A DNA stretch of 50,567 nt from an uncultured Bacilli bacterium (GCA_947630945.1 CANRJN010000002.1:1-50567), one strand, 5' to 3'; positions 3,452 to 42,581 are shown, counted from the stretch's first letter. Program-made: numbers and translations. The notes: generated from the letters alone by a model not told the origin.

Positions 3452-4894
3452 TTAGTTATTAACTTTATGATGAATCTGTGTTGTATCCATAGTAATTTTA
3501 TCAAATGTGTATCCTTTTGAAAGAGCATATTTAATCATATCATCAAGTTTACTCGCGGTATATGATTTTACATCATGCATAAGTACAACATTCATTTTGC
3601 TTTTAGATATTCCTTTTACAAAATAGTTATAAACACAATTTTCTTTTTCACTAGTAGTTTTCTTTTTAGTACAACCCCCAGCATCTTCTACACTTACATT
3701 CCAATCAAAATAATGATATCCTTTTTCTAATACTTCATTTGTAAGAATAGTCATAATTCCTTTATTAAATTTACTTACTGTATTTGATGATCCTCCTGGA
3801 AATCTTATAATTGTTGGAGTTTCATTTGTTATTTTTTTTACTCTATTTTGTACAGTTTCTAAATCTTTAAAATAACTTTCAACACTTGCATATACTTTAC
3901 TATAATTGTGAGTTGATGTGTGTAGTGCAACAGTATGACCTTCTTCAAATTCTCTTTTAATAGCACTATCACTTCCACTACTTGTTACAAAGAATGTGGC
4001 TTTTATATCATATTTTTTTAATGTATCTAATATTTTAGTTGTATATGTTGATGGTCCATCATCAAATGTTAAATATATTACACCTTTTTCAGAACCTGTC
4101 ATATTTTGAGAAGTCTTTGGGTTATATACATAAACATATCTTTTAACACTACTTTGATTATTACTAGAATCGGTTGCTGTATAAGTTATTGTATATACTC
4201 CTACTTTTGTAGTATCAACTTTGTTATCTATTTTTATATTTGTAATTTCACTATCACAGTTATCTTCTATAATATAACCACTTTCTTTATATGTATCATT
4301 AAGTAAAATATATACGTTTTCTTCACCTTTAAGTTTAATACTAGGTCCTTCATTATCTGTAATATTTATTTTTCTTGTAACTTTTGTTTCATTATTAGAT
4401 GAATCTTTTACTTTATAAATTCTTTCATTTATATTATTTTCAATTGTTACTTGACTAGTAATATCTCCATCATAATTATCAATTGCATTATACCCTTCTT
4501 CTATATAACTATTTGAACTACAAGCATTACTTTCAGTATTACCATTAAGAGTTATTACAGGTGGTATTTTATCTATAACATTTACTACTACTTTGTTTTC
4601 TAATTTATATATAAATATTCTAGTAGAATATGTAAGTTCATAACTTCCCACTTTACTAGTATTTACACTACCATTTACTTTTACTTTACTTGATATATTT
4701 TTATTTAAATATTTAATCTTATATGTTGGATTTTTAAAACTCTCATTTAATTCAATATTTATACTATTAACTTCTTGATTATTATATATTATAAGTAATT
4801 TTGGTCTTACAAATAAAAGAAAGAAAAATATTATTATCAAAAATATTAATATAATTAAAAGTATAATATTTTCTTTAAATAATTTTCCTTTCAT
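3452..4894 (-). CDS. membrane-anchored polysaccharide deacetylase (NodB domain) with two Ig-like (DUF5011-type) domains
   Basis: N-terminal TM helix. Two P-x-I-x-L-x-G...Y-x-E-x-G-Y...D-x-x-D-x-x-I-T modules. NodB motifs LTFDDGPS and ALHTSTH in the C-terminal half. Confidence 0.85.
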   Translation of the reverse strand: MKGKLFKENIILLIILIFLIIIFFFLLFVRPKLLIIYNNQEVNSINIELNESFKNPTYKIKYLNKNISSKVKVNGSVNTSKVGSYELTYSTRIFIYKLENKVVVNVIDKIPPVITLNGNTESNACSSNSYIEEGYNAIDNYDGDITSQVTIENNINERIYKVKDSSNNETKVTRKINITDNEGPSIKLKGEENVYILLNDTYKESGYIIEDNCDSEITNIKIDNKVDTTKVGVYTITYTATDSSNNQSSVKRYVYVYNPKTSQNMTGSEKGVIYLTFDDGPSTYTTKILDTLKKYDIKATFFVTSSGSDSAIKREFEEGHTVALHTSTHNYSKVYASVESYFKDLETVQNRVKKITNETPTIIRFPGGSSNTVSKFNKGIMTILTNEVLEKGYHYFDWNVSVEDAGGCTKKKTTSEKENCVYNYFVKGISKSKMNVVLMHDVKSYTASKLDDMIKYALSKGYTFDKITMDTTQIHHKVNN

Positions 4895-27154: not shown

Positions 27155-29584
27155 TTATTTTTCAAGTATAGCATCTATTGGTTTTTGTTTACTTATTTTT
27201 CTTGTATTTGAACTTGATATTAATATTGATGTCGCGAGTGCAAATATGAATATAAATACTATAACTAATGGACTTAATACAATTGCATTAAATTTAAGTT
27301 CTGTATGTTCAACTAAATATATTACAAGTAATTTATTTACAATTAACCATAAAATAATAGAGAATATTGAAGAAATAATACCTATTGCTATTGACTCCAT
27401 ACTAAATATTCTTGTTATATCATTTGAAGATGCCCCAAGACCTCTTAATACACCTATTTCTTTTTTACTATCATTAATCGATAATGATATAAAGTTTGAA
27501 AATAATAAGAAACCAAATGTAAAGAATATTAGTGATATTATTAAAATTGGTAAATTAAGAAATCTATAAAGGAAAGAAACAAATCCTATTTCTTCATTCA
27601 TATATTCTAATTTATATACATATATTGGTTCATTTGTATCTTGTAATTCATCTTCATATTCATTAAGAAATGTTAAATTTGAAAATGATTTTTTCATATT
27701 TTTATAATTATCATCATATATTAAAAGTGAGTTAACTTCTTTATCTTTATATTTTATTATATCTTTATATATTGAACCTATATAGTTATTGTCATCTAGT
27801 GTTATTCCAACTATTTTAATGGTTTTATCATCAGGTCCATCAATTGAAAAATATTGATAGTAGAATTCTATATTTTTATATAATGGTGTATCTTCTAAAT
27901 ATTTAACAGAGAAATTTATTAAAGATTCATTATAATCACTAGTATTATCATAATAATCCATAAATTTATTATCAAAGTCTTTATATAAATTTCTAAGTGT
28001 GTTAGGTGATACGACTATTTGTCCTTCTTCTAAATCATTTATTTTTTTAATCCCATCACTTGTCATTATATCTATTTCATTTTCAAGAAATTTTATTTTT
28101 TTGATGTCTTCATAATTATTATTAGAATTATTGTAAGCATCTTTTGCACGTAAAAATACTTTATTCATAAGATTATCATTATCTTGATTTAATATTACAT
28201 TATCAACAAAGCCTTTTGTGTAAGCGTATGAACCACCACTCATGATTCCAACAATAGTTATTATATTATCTCCAAATTTTATTTTTTTATTTGATGAAAC
28301 TAATTCTTCATAGTCTTTTGGAAAATACTTTTCTCCACTTTCTAATATAATTCCATATTTAACAATATCATAAGCAACATATCCAGGTATTACTATTTCA
28401 TTAGGTGAAGATGGCTTCCTTCCTATAATATTATCAAATATTTTATCATCTTGAACATCTACTATACCATGTATAAAAGTATTATTTATATCACTATTTG
28501 TATTTTCATCTGGTCTTGCAAGTCTAAGAAATCCAAACATGAACCCATTATCATATAAAGTATATATTTTATTTATTTTTGATGTAATTAAATTTTCTAC
28601 ATTTTTATAGTCCTCTTCTTGGAAATTAAATCTAGGAAAATTACTATTTTCATCTGCATGTGATTCTACTTTTAGAATTTCATATGTATGTGAATTATTA
28701 TCTTTAACAGTTCGCATTATTAAAGGAAGTTCATTAAATAATGAAAAATTCATACCAATAGCAAGAAACATGAAGGCTATTGATATTACAAGTATTGATA
28801 AAAATAATTTTGATGGTTTACTTTTAAAATTTTTAAAAGCCATATTGAATGCATACTTAAATGGTAATTTTGATTTTTTTAATTCTAAATTATTAGATTC
28901 ACTATTATATGTAACTCCATTATCATACTCTATTTGACCATCTTTTATTCCTATTATTCTATCTGCATAATTTCTTGCAGACTCCCTATCATGTGATACC
29001 ACTATTACTAGTCTTTCTTTACTAATACTTTTTAATATTTGAAATATTTGTGCACTAGATACACTATCTAAATTACCTGTTGGCTCATCTGCTAAAATTA
29101 TTTGTGGTTTTTTAATTAAGGCTCTTGCTATTGCTACTCTTTGTTTTTGTCCACCAGATAATTCATTCATTTTTCTATTTTCTAAGTCTTTCATTCCTAA
29201 ATCTTCAAGTAATTTTAATATTTCTTCTCTATTTCCTTTTTCACCTTGTAATTCTTTTGCTAATTCTATATTTTCATATACATTATATTTTTCTAAAACA
29301 TTAAATTCTTGAAAGACAAAACCGACACATGTATTTCTATATGCATCATAATCTTTTTCTTTAAAATCATTTGTATTTTTTACATTTACAATATAGTTAC
29401 CACTTGTTTGTCTGTCAAGTCCACCTAATATATTAAGTAATGTACTTTTTCCACTTCCACTTTTTCCTAAAATAAAGACAAGTCCCTTACTTCCTATTTT
29501 CAAATTAATATTATTTATCGCGGTAGTTTTATTTCCACTAGTGTTTTCTTCATATATTTTAGTTATATTTTCTAGTTCTATCAC
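27155..29584 (-). CDS. ABC ATPase fused to a FtsX-type permease (MacB-like), paralog 2
   Basis: Same architecture as paralog 1. GTG start, preceded by AGGTG. The C-terminal FtsX motif is GVLRGLGA. Confidence 0.85.
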   Translation of the reverse strand: MIELENITKIYEENTSGNKTTAINNINLKIGSKGLVFILGKSGSGKSTLLNILGGLDRQTSGNYIVNVKNTNDFKEKDYDAYRNTCVGFVFQEFNVLEKYNVYENIELAKELQGEKGNREEILKLLEDLGMKDLENRKMNELSGGQKQRVAIARALIKKPQIILADEPTGNLDSVSSAQIFQILKSISKERLVIVVSHDRESARNYADRIIGIKDGQIEYDNGVTYNSESNNLELKKSKLPFKYAFNMAFKNFKSKPSKLFLSILVISIAFMFLAIGMNFSLFNELPLIMRTVKDNNSHTYEILKVESHADENSNFPRFNFQEEDYKNVENLITSKINKIYTLYDNGFMFGFLRLARPDENTNSDINNTFIHGIVDVQDDKIFDNIIGRKPSSPNEIVIPGYVAYDIVKYGIILESGEKYFPKDYEELVSSNKKIKFGDNIITIVGIMSGGSYAYTKGFVDNVILNQDNDNLMNKVFLRAKDAYNNSNNNYEDIKKIKFLENEIDIMTSDGIKKINDLEEGQIVVSPNTLRNLYKDFDNKFMDYYDNTSDYNESLINFSVKYLEDTPLYKNIEFYYQYFSIDGPDDKTIKIVGITLDDNNYIGSIYKDIIKYKDKEVNSLLIYDDNYKNMKKSFSNLTFLNEYEDELQDTNEPIYVYKLEYMNEEIGFVSFLYRFLNLPILIISLIFFTFGFLLFSNFISLSINDSKKEIGVLRGLGASSNDITRIFSMESIAIGIISSIFSIILWLIVNKLLVIYLVEHTELKFNAIVLSPLVIVFIFIFALATSILISSSNTRKISKQKPIDAILEK
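28840..29503. repeat. near-identical segment shared with 26402-27062
   Basis: See the partner repeat. Only 3 amino-acid differences occur across about 210 residues (T/R, G/V, N/S). Confidence 0.8.
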
Positions 29585-31147: not shown

Positions 31148-31243
31148 ATTAAAAACCCCCTTCTAAAATATGTACTCTTCTAAAAATCTTTTAAATTATA
31201 CCATAAAATCGATAAAATGTCAAAATTTACATTCAAAATATAA

Positions 31244-39744: not shown

Positions 39745-40380
39745 TTACTCCTCCTTTAAAACAATTTGATTTTGTTTATAATCAGGCTTATATTTTTTTA
39801 CATATTTCCAAAACATTTTTGAATGATTAAATTCTAAGAAATGACATAATTCATGTATTACAACATAATCAATTTCATCAATGCTATATTTAATTAATTC
39901 AAAGTTTAGTTTTATTAATTTTTCTCTTTTATTACAGTATCCCCATTTCCTTTTCATTTTTCCAATTAATACTTTTGGATAAGGAATATCTTCTTCAAAT
40001 AAATTATAACATATTTTTACTCTTTCATTAAATATTCTATTTGCTTCATTCTTTAAAAAAGTATCTAAATATTTTTTATCTTTAACAAATACTTTATCAT
40101 CTACAAATTCTATTTTAGATACTGTGTTTAATATTATTACATCATATTTATTTCCTAAGTAATAAAATTCTTCTTTCTTTTGTTCTTTTTTTTGTAGTCT
40201 ATTATAAGCATCTATTATAGATTCTTGATTAGTTTTTATAAAAGATAAAATCATTCCTTTTGTAACTAAATGATTACAAGAAATATATATCCCATCTACT
40301 TTTACTCTTAAATACATATTTTTAATACTTTTACGAGTAATATATACATTAAAATTTATATCTCCAAGAACTATTTGCAT
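39745..40380 (-). CDS. YgjP-like (DUF45 / M48-related) zinc metallopeptidase-fold protein
   Basis: HELCHFLEFNHS and the R..KR.WG.C pattern (KRKWGYCN). I chose the start at MQIVLG (ATG at 40380, AGAGG RBS 7 nt upstream). The track extension to 40494 uses TTG and runs through a structured GC-rich element. Confidence 0.8.
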   Translation of the reverse strand: MQIVLGDINFNVYITRKSIKNMYLRVKVDGIYISCNHLVTKGMILSFIKTNQESIIDAYNRLQKKEQKKEEFYYLGNKYDVIILNTVSKIEFVDDKVFVKDKKYLDTFLKNEANRIFNERVKICYNLFEEDIPYPKVLIGKMKRKWGYCNKREKLIKLNFELIKYSIDEIDYVVIHELCHFLEFNHSKMFWKYVKKYKPDYKQNQIVLKEE

Positions 40381-40454
40381 ATCAAAACCTCTAAATAAAT
40401 TATAACATTTAATCCAGAACAAAAGATAAATTTCAATAATTAAAATTATTTCTT

Positions 40455-40545
40455 TTATCCTGAGTAACTTCACAGTTACTCTTTTCTGCTTCAACGAATT
40501 TTACTTCTCCACAGACCATATTTCCGAACGTCGCGTCCGTACTTT
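40455..40545 (-). ncRNA. unclassified GC-rich structured element in the 5' leader of the ygjP-like/trmD operon
   Basis: There are two strong hairpins. The first is GAGTAACT-nnnn-AGTTACTC (40462-40481), whose loop is the GNRA-type GUGA on the minus strand. The second is CGAACG-nnn-CGTCCG (40525-40539). Local G+C is clearly above the surroundings. The class and the strand of function are unresolved. Confidence 0.35.
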
Positions 40546-40602
40546 TAACTTTTTATCCATTTTTAATTTTCAATTATTACTTTATAATCATCTGATATAA
40601 TA

Positions 40603-40631
40603 ATTATATATTACAAACAAACGTATGTCAA
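40603..40631 (-). promoter_or_regulatory. consensus sigma-70 promoter
   Basis: On the minus strand: TTGACA (40631-40626), a spacer of exactly 17 nt, then TATAAT (40608-40603). The predicted leader is about 215 nt before the ATG at 40380. Confidence 0.65.
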
Positions 40632-40715
40632 TAATGTCTTGTTTTTTTATTTTCATAAAAGAAAATTACAAAAGAAATTATCTGTGATTTATTTTGATAA
40701 GAACTTTCCTATTAT

Positions 40716-40745
40716 ATAAAAAAGGAAGTTCGTTTGATGAACTTC
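40716..40745 (-). terminator. rho-independent terminator after the 609-aa surface protein gene
   Basis: 7-bp stem gaagttc/gaacttc (40725-40731 and 40739-40745), followed on the minus strand by CTTTTTTAT. Confidence 0.7.
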
Positions 40746-40751
40746 ATAATT

Positions 40752-42581
40752 TTATATTTCTTCTCCAACACCTTCAATAGGTTGTTCTTCCCAAACTGCT
40801 TCTAATGTTGTATCTTTATTTTCTTCTGGTTTATAATCTTCTGGTACAACTTCTTCTTTACTTTCTGCTTTTTCTTCTGGTTTCATTTCTGAATTATCAG
40901 TTGAAGTTGTTGGTTCTGTTACTTCTTGTGGTGTAGGTTCTGTTGTTGATTCAGTTGTTGGTTCTGTTAAAGTTTCAGTACCATTTTGTTCAACTTCACT
41001 TGGTGTAGTTTCAGTCTCAGTAGTTGAATTTAATTCATTAGATTTTTGATTTTGTGAATCTACACTTTCAGTTCCTTGTGATGTTTGTGATTTATCACTA
41101 GTTAGTGTAGGCTCTGTATTGCTACTTGGTGTAGTATCACTCATAGTATTAGTATCTTGATTTGATTCTGTTGATTCTAATACATTTTGATTTGAAGAAT
41201 CTGGATTTGTAGTTTCAGAAGTTACAGTATCTTCCAAAGGTTTAGTTTCTGTTTCTTTCCAACCCTTAAATACTTTTTCTTTTTCTTCTACATTATCCCC
41301 TTCTTTTGGAGTATATCCATTTGCTGATTTACTTGAAACTTCACTTAATTTTATTTCATTGTCTTCTAGATATTCTTTATCATCTGAAACAACTTTTTTA
41401 CTATTAAGTGTTTCTTCATCAACAGGAACAAAGTATGTTGGAACTTCCATTCCTAAATCTTCTGGATTAGGAAGTTCATATTCTTCTAATTCTTGTTCAT
41501 TATATCCAACAACTACTTCTTCATCTCCACTTTTATATACTACTCTAGCAGCACCACATACTGCATATAATGATTTATCTACTCTATCTTCTTTTAATCT
41601 TATGTTTGAACTAATATTGTTACTATCACTACTCATAGCCCATCCTAAGAATTTCTCATTTACACTACAATATGCATCATTGCCACTTTGAACGCCATAA
41701 CTATCAAGTGTATCTTTTGTAACTTCATCATGAATTACATTTTTACCTTCATAGTCATAATAATTAACATTCAAATGGTCTACTATTTTTGCTGTTAAAT
41801 ATATTTGATTATTTTTATTAGCATAATTAATTATATCTTTTGTAAGTTTAGTAATTTTATTACTATTTAAATACCAACCTTGGAATATTCCATCATAATC
41901 AATTGGCTCACTTAAAGTAATATTTCCATCTTCTACTGTATATTCAGTAGGATTATTACTTACGTAATTATCATAAATAACTTCATAATGAATTACTTTA
42001 CATACCATATAAATATTTTTATTTTCATTTACAGAAGTATTAAAGTTATATTCATTTTTCATATTTTCATCAGTATAATATTTACAATCAGTATAACCAT
42101 CTGGTGTATATTTACTAACTTTATTACCTTTATTTACTTTTTTAACATTCTCTTCACCATTTAAATAGAATGTAACTTTATATTTAGTATCACTAGTAGT
42201 TTTCTTTGTAGTTGACACAGCAACAACTTTTTTAACTACTTCTTCCTCTTCAACAACCTTTTCATCTTCTTCCTCATCATCGCTTGGTACTACTATTGTA
42301 TCATCTGGTTTCTTAGGTTCTTCTACTTCTTTTTCTTCTTTCTTACATCCAACTAGAAGACCTATTACAGTGGCTACAATAACTAATATTGCTAATGCTA
42401 TAAAAACAATTAATCTTTTATCATCTTCATCATCGTCTAAAAAGTCATCAACATCATTAACTTTTTCTTTTACTTTTTCTACTTCTTCATGAACTTTAAC
42501 TTCTTTGACATTAGAATTTGAAGGTTTATAATTATTCTTTTTAGTATTAGTTTTCTTAGAAGTACCCTTACCTTCTTTCAT
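40752..42581 (-). CDS. membrane-anchored surface protein with Listeria-Bacteroides (Flg_new / InlB B-repeat type) repeats and a low-complexity acidic T/S/E/P tail
   Basis: K-rich N-terminus and one TM helix (LIVFIALAILVIVATVIGLLVG). Repeats of the type Y.V.F...G.........Y....GW (YKVTFYLNGEE, YEVIYDNY...FQGWYLN, FLGWAMS, FKGWKE). C-terminal TEPT/ESTE-rich region. Confidence 0.75.
   Translation of the reverse strand: MKEGKGTSKKTNTKKNNYKPSNSNVKEVKVHEEVEKVKEKVNDVDDFLDDDEDDKRLIVFIALAILVIVATVIGLLVGCKKEEKEVEEPKKPDDTIVVPSDDEEEDEKVVEEEEVVKKVVAVSTTKKTTSDTKYKVTFYLNGEENVKKVNKGNKVSKYTPDGYTDCKYYTDENMKNEYNFNTSVNENKNIYMVCKVIHYEVIYDNYVSNNPTEYTVEDGNITLSEPIDYDGIFQGWYLNSNKITKLTKDIINYANKNNQIYLTAKIVDHLNVNYYDYEGKNVIHDEVTKDTLDSYGVQSGNDAYCSVNEKFLGWAMSSDSNNISSNIRLKEDRVDKSLYAVCGAARVVYKSGDEEVVVGYNEQELEEYELPNPEDLGMEVPTYFVPVDEETLNSKKVVSDDKEYLEDNEIKLSEVSSKSANGYTPKEGDNVEEKEKVFKGWKETETKPLEDTVTSETTNPDSSNQNVLESTESNQDTNTMSDTTPSSNTEPTLTSDKSQTSQGTESVDSQNQKSNELNSTTETETTPSEVEQNGTETLTEPTTESTTEPTPQEVTEPTTSTDNSEMKPEEKAESKEEVVPEDYKPEENKDTTLEAVWEEQPIEGVGEEI

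Follow-up and report, generated by a model that had tools for sequence, protein, structure and literature searches.

The structured segment before a ygjP-like/rimM/trmD operon in an uncultured Bacilli bacterium is very probably a tnpB-deleted insertion sequence relic

On the minus strand of the 50,567-nt stretch of DNA from an uncultured Bacilli bacterium that was analyzed here (the window), a perfect consensus promoter and a structured, G+C-enriched segment precede an operon of ygjP-like, SpoU-methylase, rimM, and trmD genes, and the question raised by this locus is whether the segment is a leader that belongs to the operon, perhaps a riboswitch of a new kind, or sequence that has come from elsewhere. 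We consider it very probable that 40710..40417 (minus strand) is a relic of a non-autonomous insertion sequence of the TnpB type (IS200/IS605/IS607 superfamily) that has lost tnpB by deletion, rather than a new riboswitch. This reading is built on repeats in the same genome, homology to tnpB 3' flanks, a covarying fold, absence from orthologous sites, and a deletion junction common to two copies. The features of the locus are collected in Table 1.

Table 1. Features of the element, its surroundings, and a related RNA upstream of folT
Feature	Position	Strand	Basis or remark
Intrinsic terminator of upstream 609-aa gene	40725..40745	-	Context, outside the element
tnpB-less mini insertion sequence, 294 nt, from AGGAAAGTTC start (left end) to TTTTGTTC (right end)	40417..40710	-	Repeats, empty sites, contig breaks
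Left end (LE), including the promoter that drives tnpB in gene-bearing copies	40597..40710	-	Alignment
Sigma-70 promoter TTGACA-17-TATAAT	40603..40631 (-35, 40631-40626; -10, 40608-40603)	-	12/12; identical in C54 copy
Deletion junction directly 3' of -10 box, then remnant of last tnpB codons	40568..40602 (approximate)	-	Alignment to 3' end of C4 tnpB remnant
Hairpin H1, 6-bp G+C-rich stem, 3-nt loop	40525..40539	-	Folding prediction
Kink-turn hairpin H2	40485..40515	-	Sub-threshold RAGATH-18 match and k-turn signature
H2 NC stem	40515-40511 with 40489-40485	-	
H2 G.A/A.G/A.G	40510-40508 with 40492-40490	-	
H2 bulge	40495-40493	-	
H2 C stem, 3 bp	40507-40505 with 40498-40496	-	
Hairpin H3, 8-bp stem, GUGA (GNRA) loop	40462..40481	-	Folding prediction
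A+T-rich right-end hairpin H4	40459-40425	-	75% paired in alignment
Terminal motif UUUUGUUC	40424-40417	-	Conserved in 11/13 homologues, sequences diverge beyond
Flank, would-be guide portion of omegaRNA	40397..40416	-	Predicted from known TnpB guide-RNA layout
Native extended -10 promoter (TGTTATAAT) of ygjP-like operon	40399..40407	-	Arrangement conserved in relatives
folT-upstream RNA, about 115 nt	L083:1545-1651(-), L085:1471-1585(+), L084, L086, L088, L093-L118		Family f23 genomes and one of f5

The operon's own promoter and the inserted element

All genes around the finding lie on the minus strand. The upstream gene ends at 40752, and the element adjoins the T-run of its terminator, being inserted immediately 3' of it; an equivalent hairpin with a T-run also precedes ygjP in relatives. 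The 609-aa product of the upstream gene (40752-42581, minus strand) is predicted to be membrane-anchored, with a weak match to the Listeria-Bacteroides repeat and a long, acidic, low-complexity tail rich in Thr, Glu, and Pro. On the other side of the element, the ygjP-like gene has its first credible start codon in the ATG at 40380, with the -10 box of the consensus promoter 223 nt upstream. In the 211-aa product from this ATG, residues 20-210 make up the Pfam YgjP-like domain, and most of the YgjP orthologues, which are present in 48 of 48 other genomes of the genus, align from residue 1 or 2 of the product, so that the TTG-started ORF 39745..40494, which the preliminary description had already called a spurious extension, is an artefact. 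The ATG is preceded by the Shine-Dalgarno (SD) sequence AGAGG at 40392-40388 and by an extended -10 box that lies 10 nt beyond the right end of the element, and the order TGnTATAAT, short spacer, AGAGG, ATG is conserved upstream of ygjP in relatives. Judged from sequence, the operon's own promoter appears to be this extended -10 box, still present past the right end, and the consensus promoter appears to belong to the element and not to the operon. The latter had been singled out as a strong promoter, the best in the window; its 12 of 12 match to the sigma-70 consensus is confirmed, and its uniqueness is not, as a second 12/12 TTGACA-17-TATAAT site is found at 31195-31223 (minus strand), with a TG immediately 5' of the -10 box. 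Promoter sites with no more than one mismatch number 7 in the window versus 2.63 +/- 1.49 in shuffled sequences.

The genome of the window (G000) is an 85%-complete assembly of 156 contigs, with the window copy on contig C2. A 121-nt core of the element has two further copies in this genome, on contigs C54 (94% identity) and C4 (92% identity), and a covariance model of the scaffold gives exactly these three matches. With the whole intergenic region as the query, the C54 copy (3824-4122) aligns at 88% identity over 313 nt, and the C4 copy (27340-28131) aligns in two blocks that are 467 bp apart. These 467 bp and the adjoining start of the right block encode an in-frame TnpB remnant of 166 aa, which has Pfam matches to HTH_OrfB_IS605 and Cas12f1-like_TNB and in which the N-terminal HTH, the region of the RuvC-II glutamate, the zinc ribbon, and, at the C-terminus, the RuvC-III motif are preserved, with the middle missing. 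The left block contains TTGACA-17-TAAAAT, an SD sequence, and the tnpB ATG, and the right block is the structured RNA; because of this layout of promoter, SD, and tnpB, the perfect promoter in the window is taken to be the tnpB promoter of the element. This mini-TnpB (G000:C4:27481-27981, or L025:682-1182) has both an intact promoter and an SD sequence in front of it.

The LE of the window element can be aligned to what precedes tnpB in the C4 copy, and its start and promoter align with the LEs of full-length elements in four other genomes of the genus (G024, G068, G002, and G034). The boundaries at 40710 and 40417 are each accurate to about +/-3 nt, the left one being placed from the three copies and from diverged empty sites. 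In the window and C54 copies, tnpB has been deleted except for its last codons, of which about 35 nt are left in the window, and the junction is the same in both; because the junction is identical, the gene-less form would appear to have transposed after the deletion. No protein gene is found in the window element. Its only candidate, a 19-codon ORF starting at ATG 40560, was rejected, having no SD sequence and being reduced to 4 codons in C54. The three G000 copies occupy unrelated intergenic contexts, all co-directional with the downstream gene, and together with several full-length relatives they lie 3' of an intrinsic-terminator hairpin and T-run, next to a TTAT-N-TAAT-like word that is common to the left flanks. 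Since elements adjoin terminator T-runs both in the G000 copies and in several relatives, a target preference for terminator-proximal sites is suggested.

At the orthologous position in related genomes the element is missing. Among 29 ygjP loci that were fetched, 28 were measurable, and in 27 of these ygjP is separated from the upstream gene by 53-111 nt, in the remaining one by 200 nt, compared with 371 nt here. The relatives' intergenic regions consist of the terminator hairpin, its T-run, TGnTATAAT, AGAGG, and ATG, and all 28 are without the element; a search upstream of ygjP in relatives with R1, a covariance model of the scaffold family, found nothing, the best score being 13 bits (E 1.1). 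The closest relative, G069, whose YgjP is 93% identical, has an empty site. The conservation at the homologous intergenic region that had been proposed as a check is thus lacking in every measurable genome of the genus, and the segment is not the native leader of the ygjP-like/SpoU-methylase/rimM/trmD operon that it had been thought to be. Public gut-metagenome contigs leave the window sequence at 40416 and near 40719, which are the ends of the element, and contigs of close relatives leave it at 40410/40411 into terminator-like sequence. Empty-site contigs come from runs X6 and X7, contigs with other flanks are seen at 40416, and in the four metagenome runs no contig spans the element, the empty-site evidence being the loose ends of relatives' contigs. 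In run X1 one contig matches the LE and promoter and departs at the deletion junction (40593-40597) into unplaced sequence, and an element variant with other internal content may be present in that sample.

The RNA fold and its class

The G+C island noticed in the preliminary description is real, with a G+C content of 0.38-0.45 in 60-nt windows across 40460-40559, against 0.12-0.22 on either side and a genome average of 0.235. The two hairpins described there both exist, as H3 (40481-40462) and H1 (40539-40525), and a third one between them, H2 (40515-40485), had been overlooked. The minus-strand fold has a free energy of -22.2 kcal/mol compared with -14.28 +/- 2.46 by chance (z -3.22). Across 13 aligned homologous scaffolds, 91.7% of the cells in the proposed helices are paired, versus 37-49% when the partners are slid, and there are 14 double-changed pairs versus 2-6. 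In H1, 97.4% of cells are paired and compensatory changes occur in 2 of 6 pairs, and in H3 they occur in 7 of 8 pairs, with the first G, the U, and the A of the four-nucleotide loop invariant in 13/13 homologues. The H2 C-stem pair 40506/40497 changes from A-U to G-C in two paralogues and in metagenome contigs. A structured RNA downstream of the promoter and on the same strand is therefore borne out, being conserved and covarying, and the homologues among which it covaries are found beside tnpB or solo, and not at ygjP.

The opposite orientation had also been considered, in which the plus strand would form either a terminator of antisense transcription or the 3' end of a small RNA. A consensus scan does list a terminator-like site at 40462-40481 followed by a T-run; however, folding of the plus strand does not stand out from that of shuffled sequences (z -1.31), H1 and the NC stem contain conserved G-U pairs that become A.C when read on the plus strand, every homologue has the scaffold in one and the same orientation to tnpB, and no plus-strand gene ends here. 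The strand is thus the minus strand, and a plus-strand function is highly improbable.

At its gathering thresholds, Rfam identifies only tRNAs in the window. A permissive scan matches 40515-40483 (minus strand) to RAGATH-18 (RF03064) with 28.3 bits (E 0.004), which is below the gathering score of 44.9 and is the highest RAGATH-18 match in the whole genome; the G010 homologue likewise stays below that score with 23.9 bits, and when 13 related loci were compared with Rfam in a larger search at E<=0.1 there was no match. In the alignment this segment agrees with the conserved letters of the core, and 2 nt stand in place of the model's 40-nt distal insert. The k-turn of RAGATH-18 is described as having C:G at -1b:-1n, A:G at 3b:3n, and G:U at 4b:4n (PMC8191799), and each of these, together with the tandem G.A/A.G, is present at 40515-40485. 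RAGATH-18 is reported to form the core of the reRNA, the guide RNA of IS607-family TnpB nucleases (PMC11061315; PMC13085918). In two other families, R1 and a second model, R2, also detect bona fide RAGATH-18 RNAs (72.2 and 67.8 bits) that are located directly 3' of TnpB homologues and have an equal order of parts, and because of this the window RNA is regarded as a short-hairpin variant of the RAGATH-18 type. The Rfam scan recommended in the preliminary description was therefore informative, with the core match pointing to a TnpB guide RNA, and the designation as an unknown class gives way to a sub-threshold RAGATH-18 assignment for a scaffold that is homologous to RNAs 3' of tnpB.

These results also bear on a native riboswitch or leader of an unknown class, possibly one that senses SAM or SAH, which would be in keeping with a structured, G+C-rich RNA placed between a promoter and methyltransferase genes. 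The earlier statement that no known riboswitch matches is upheld, since none appears in Rfam even at E values up to 10, and this absence counts against the idea, as do the 0/28 occurrence upstream of the orthologous operon and the three repeats in unrelated contexts of G000 combined with linkage to tnpB, which speak against an operon-specific leader. The chance that the segment is such a riboswitch is accordingly close to nil. Two other candidates were set aside. SRP RNA, to which the word GAAGCAG had seemed to point, was rejected, the SRP RNA of this genome being at G000:C15:11332-11427 (RF00169, 53.9 bits). Autoregulation by the SpoU methylase, through binding of its L7Ae-like N-terminal domain (MRM3-like_sub_bind) to the kink-turn, was dropped because the element is an insertion that is missing in relatives.

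Scaffolds with and without tnpB, and an RNA before folT

The R1 model was used to search 49 genomes of the genus, with the loci sorted by tblastn, and it returned 29 matches in 11 of the genomes, one to five per genome. Seven matches follow a full-length tnpB (two of them with one in-frame stop), two follow a stop-riddled tnpB, three follow tnpB fragments, one is cut by a contig end, and the remaining 16 have no tnpB, making solo scaffolds commoner in this genus than gene-linked ones. TnpB homologues are present in 10 of the 48 other genomes, and the scaffold begins about 40 nt 3' of the TnpB stop codon in G024, where the protein has 399 aa, and likewise in G068, G002, G034 (two copies), G010, and G030. 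When the regions preceding the 16 solo copies were searched for LE and promoter motifs with a crude regular expression, only the two copies of G000 had them, and the others may be right-end remnants or may have other left-end types. Three solo scaffolds, L149 (G034:C4), L136 (G071:C79), and L153 (G034:C7), have a common cassette about 150-200 nt upstream that contains a TTGACA promoter, GUACCGUA, which is complementary to the scaffold UACGGUA, an SD sequence, and a 15-codon ORF; this cassette may represent a further type of left end, or the guide RNA may extend farther in the 5' direction to include it. In one further genome of the genus (G007, a single contig of 45% completeness), the TnpB copies and the YgjP orthologue are full of TGA, TAG, and TAA stops, and it may be an error-rich assembly or a decaying genome. 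The full-length TnpB of G024 is nearer to ISDra2 TnpB (E 2e-63) than to ISFba1 TnpB (8IAZ; E 4e-30), and because ISFba1 is the one associated with RAGATH-18, the RNA type and protein type agree only imperfectly with the published pairing.

The absence or presence of a TnpB partner is what bears on whether the element could still be active, as a non-autonomous transposon whose guide RNA is used in trans by a TnpB encoded elsewhere and whose transposase also acts in trans. The shared deletion junction of the window and C54 copies would fit with movement of the gene-less form, the helices of the scaffold have stayed intact, compensatory changes being seen from copy to copy, the promoter matches the consensus perfectly, and gene-less PATE-like elements with omegaRNAs have been described (PMC10055086). 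Moreover, the assembly is just 85% complete, and an intact tnpB copy could lie in its unassembled part. Against this, no intact TnpB was found in G000, the only TnpB-like sequence in the assembly being the 166-aa remnant, Y1 TnpA (PF01797) was not found either in G000 or in five genomes of the genus that carry TnpB, and the copies differ by 6-15%, for which reason the last movement is not considered recent. A working transposon is thus unlikely, and the insertion sequence relic is preferred, with its scaffold RNA most likely an orphan, since no intact TnpB is found in the assembly.

A related RNA occurs in a different setting in another family of the same class, where R1 matches 62 of 81 genomes and 24 of 33 genera, with one match per genome. 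In 31 of the 32 R1 loci examined in this folT-RNA set, the RNA is immediately upstream of a gene for a FolT-family ECF S-component (TIGR04518), often after folC. It corresponds to the 5' half of the guide-RNA scaffold, having H1, the GAAUUAACG linker, and the kink-turn hairpin, and is without the GNRA hairpin and the right-end hairpin. The core of this RNA is more than 90% conserved and the FolT proteins are 35-45% identical. It has its own closing helix, which covaries (cognate duplexes, -6.1 kcal/mol; non-cognate duplexes, -3.9 kcal/mol), and the RNA is flanked by CUAC and GUAG, which pair over 4 bp, with the word GUAGCA duplicated. A strong SD-like GGAGGAG is located about 105 nt before the folT AUG, and the AUG is without an SD of its own. 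A model made from the folT RNAs alone matches the three G000 copies back with 43.6-44.9 bits. Five near-complete genomes carrying the folT RNA contain no TnpB-type domain, and in Rfam 15 the folT RNA matches no family, with RAGATH-18 appearing only below threshold. The THF riboswitch RF01831 gave no match in five folT-leader genomes, in a search whose control gave no match anywhere, and in the part of the literature covered no paper was found that links such an RNA with folT. On present sequence evidence, the folT RNA may have arisen by domestication of a guide-RNA fragment, or it may be a new switch related to folate.

Because half of the scaffold is conserved in single copy before folT in that family, takeovers of this kind may occur, and a comparable fate can be considered for the window copy, namely that a solo scaffold has been adopted by the host as a cis-acting leader or small RNA that modulates the ygjP-like/methylase/rimM/trmD operon. 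The copy is indeed co-directional, before the operon, and behind a strong promoter. However, the 28 relatives measured lack it at this site, the same element precedes unrelated genes at C54 and C4, both transposon ends are retained, the native promoter is downstream of the element, and a closing helix of the folT-RNA kind is missing, and host takeover is therefore very improbable. A broader proposal, in which the 5' half of the scaffold is a self-standing domain open to domestication by hosts, acting before folT either as a new riboswitch related to folate or as a switch that binds a protein and fixes the distance from SD to AUG, with the window copy as a possible early stage of takeover that influences the ygjP-like/rimM/trmD operon, has only a slightly better, and still small, chance of being correct.

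Likely history of the element and comparison with known systems

The insertion sequence relic that we favor would have the following history. The element would have come to lie between two signals, the terminator of the gene upstream and the operon's native extended -10 promoter, and an internal deletion would have fused the tnpB promoter to the last tnpB codons and the guide-RNA (omegaRNA/reRNA) scaffold, which comprises H1, the RAGATH-18-type kink-turn hairpin, the hairpin with the GNRA loop, and the one at the right end. In intact elements the scaffold RNA would bind TnpB, and a guide derived from the 3' flank would direct cleavage of the vacated site, with the result that the element is copied back; in descriptions of TnpB guide RNAs, the scaffold is followed by such a flank-derived guide (PMC11061315; PMC10055086), and in the window the would-be guide flank overlaps the native promoter. 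If the element promoter is transcribed, transcripts could continue past the right-end hairpin, which is weak and A+T-rich, into the operon, so that some operon transcripts would carry a leader of about 216 nt, and any present-day effect on the operon is likely to be incidental.

For the window, this interpretation removes a false riboswitch candidate and would correct the annotation, in that the "best promoter" probably derives from a transposon remnant, the operon promoter is probably the extended -10 box, and the TTG ORF is wrong. Beyond the window, it brings to light a short form of the RAGATH-18-type TnpB guide RNA that Rfam does not recognize and that appears to be paired with an ISDra2-like TnpB, and a covariance model for this short variant would keep such relics from being called novel RNAs. 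If the reading of the folT RNA holds, it could be a case in which a transposon guide RNA has turned into a host regulatory RNA across a family, and the folT observation is possibly more novel than the window element.

Structured 5' RNAs between a promoter and its genes are familiar from riboswitch leaders such as those for SAM and THF and the T-box, and several riboswitches contain a kink-turn, as does the RNA described here. Unlike those leaders, it matches no riboswitch family, is not conserved with the operon, is mobile, and is present in multiple copies. A close comparator is the RAGATH-18 reRNA of ISFba1 (Ren et al., Cell Res 2024, PMC11061315, RF03064), which is similar in being located 3' of tnpB and outside the coding sequence, in having a 5' hairpin, a GAAUU-type linker, a kink-turn hairpin, further hairpins, and then the right end and guide, and in the C:G, A:G, and G:U identities of its kink-turn. 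It differs above the kink-turn, where the RAGATH-18 distal hairpin is described as carrying a sarcin-ricin loop (PMC13085918), whereas the window hairpin has only 3 bp and a 6-nt loop, with no sarcin-ricin loop. The left flanks here are also without the published AGGAG/GAGGG TAM, tnpB is deleted in the window element, and, unlike in IS607, no serine-recombinase tnpA is seen beside the copies in the genus (the transposase searched for was Y1, PF01797).

Among TnpB proteins of solved structure, the nearest to the genus TnpB is that of ISDra2 (PDB 8H1J and 8EXA), and the elements resemble ISDra2 in being tnpB-only and in having a guide RNA that ends at the right end. The omegaRNA of ISDra2 is described as overlapping the tnpB ORF (PMC11061315), whereas conservation here begins past the tnpB stop. 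Finally, the PATE-like, gene-less derivatives of IS200/IS605 elements are reported to code for omegaRNAs that are used in trans (Meers et al. 2023, PMC10055086), and the window element is like them in having no protein gene, in keeping both ends and the scaffold, in being multi-copy, and in having apparently moved after the loss of tnpB. It differs from them in that the assembly yielded neither a cognate TnpA nor a cognate TnpB and in that its promoter has been fused directly to the scaffold by a deletion.
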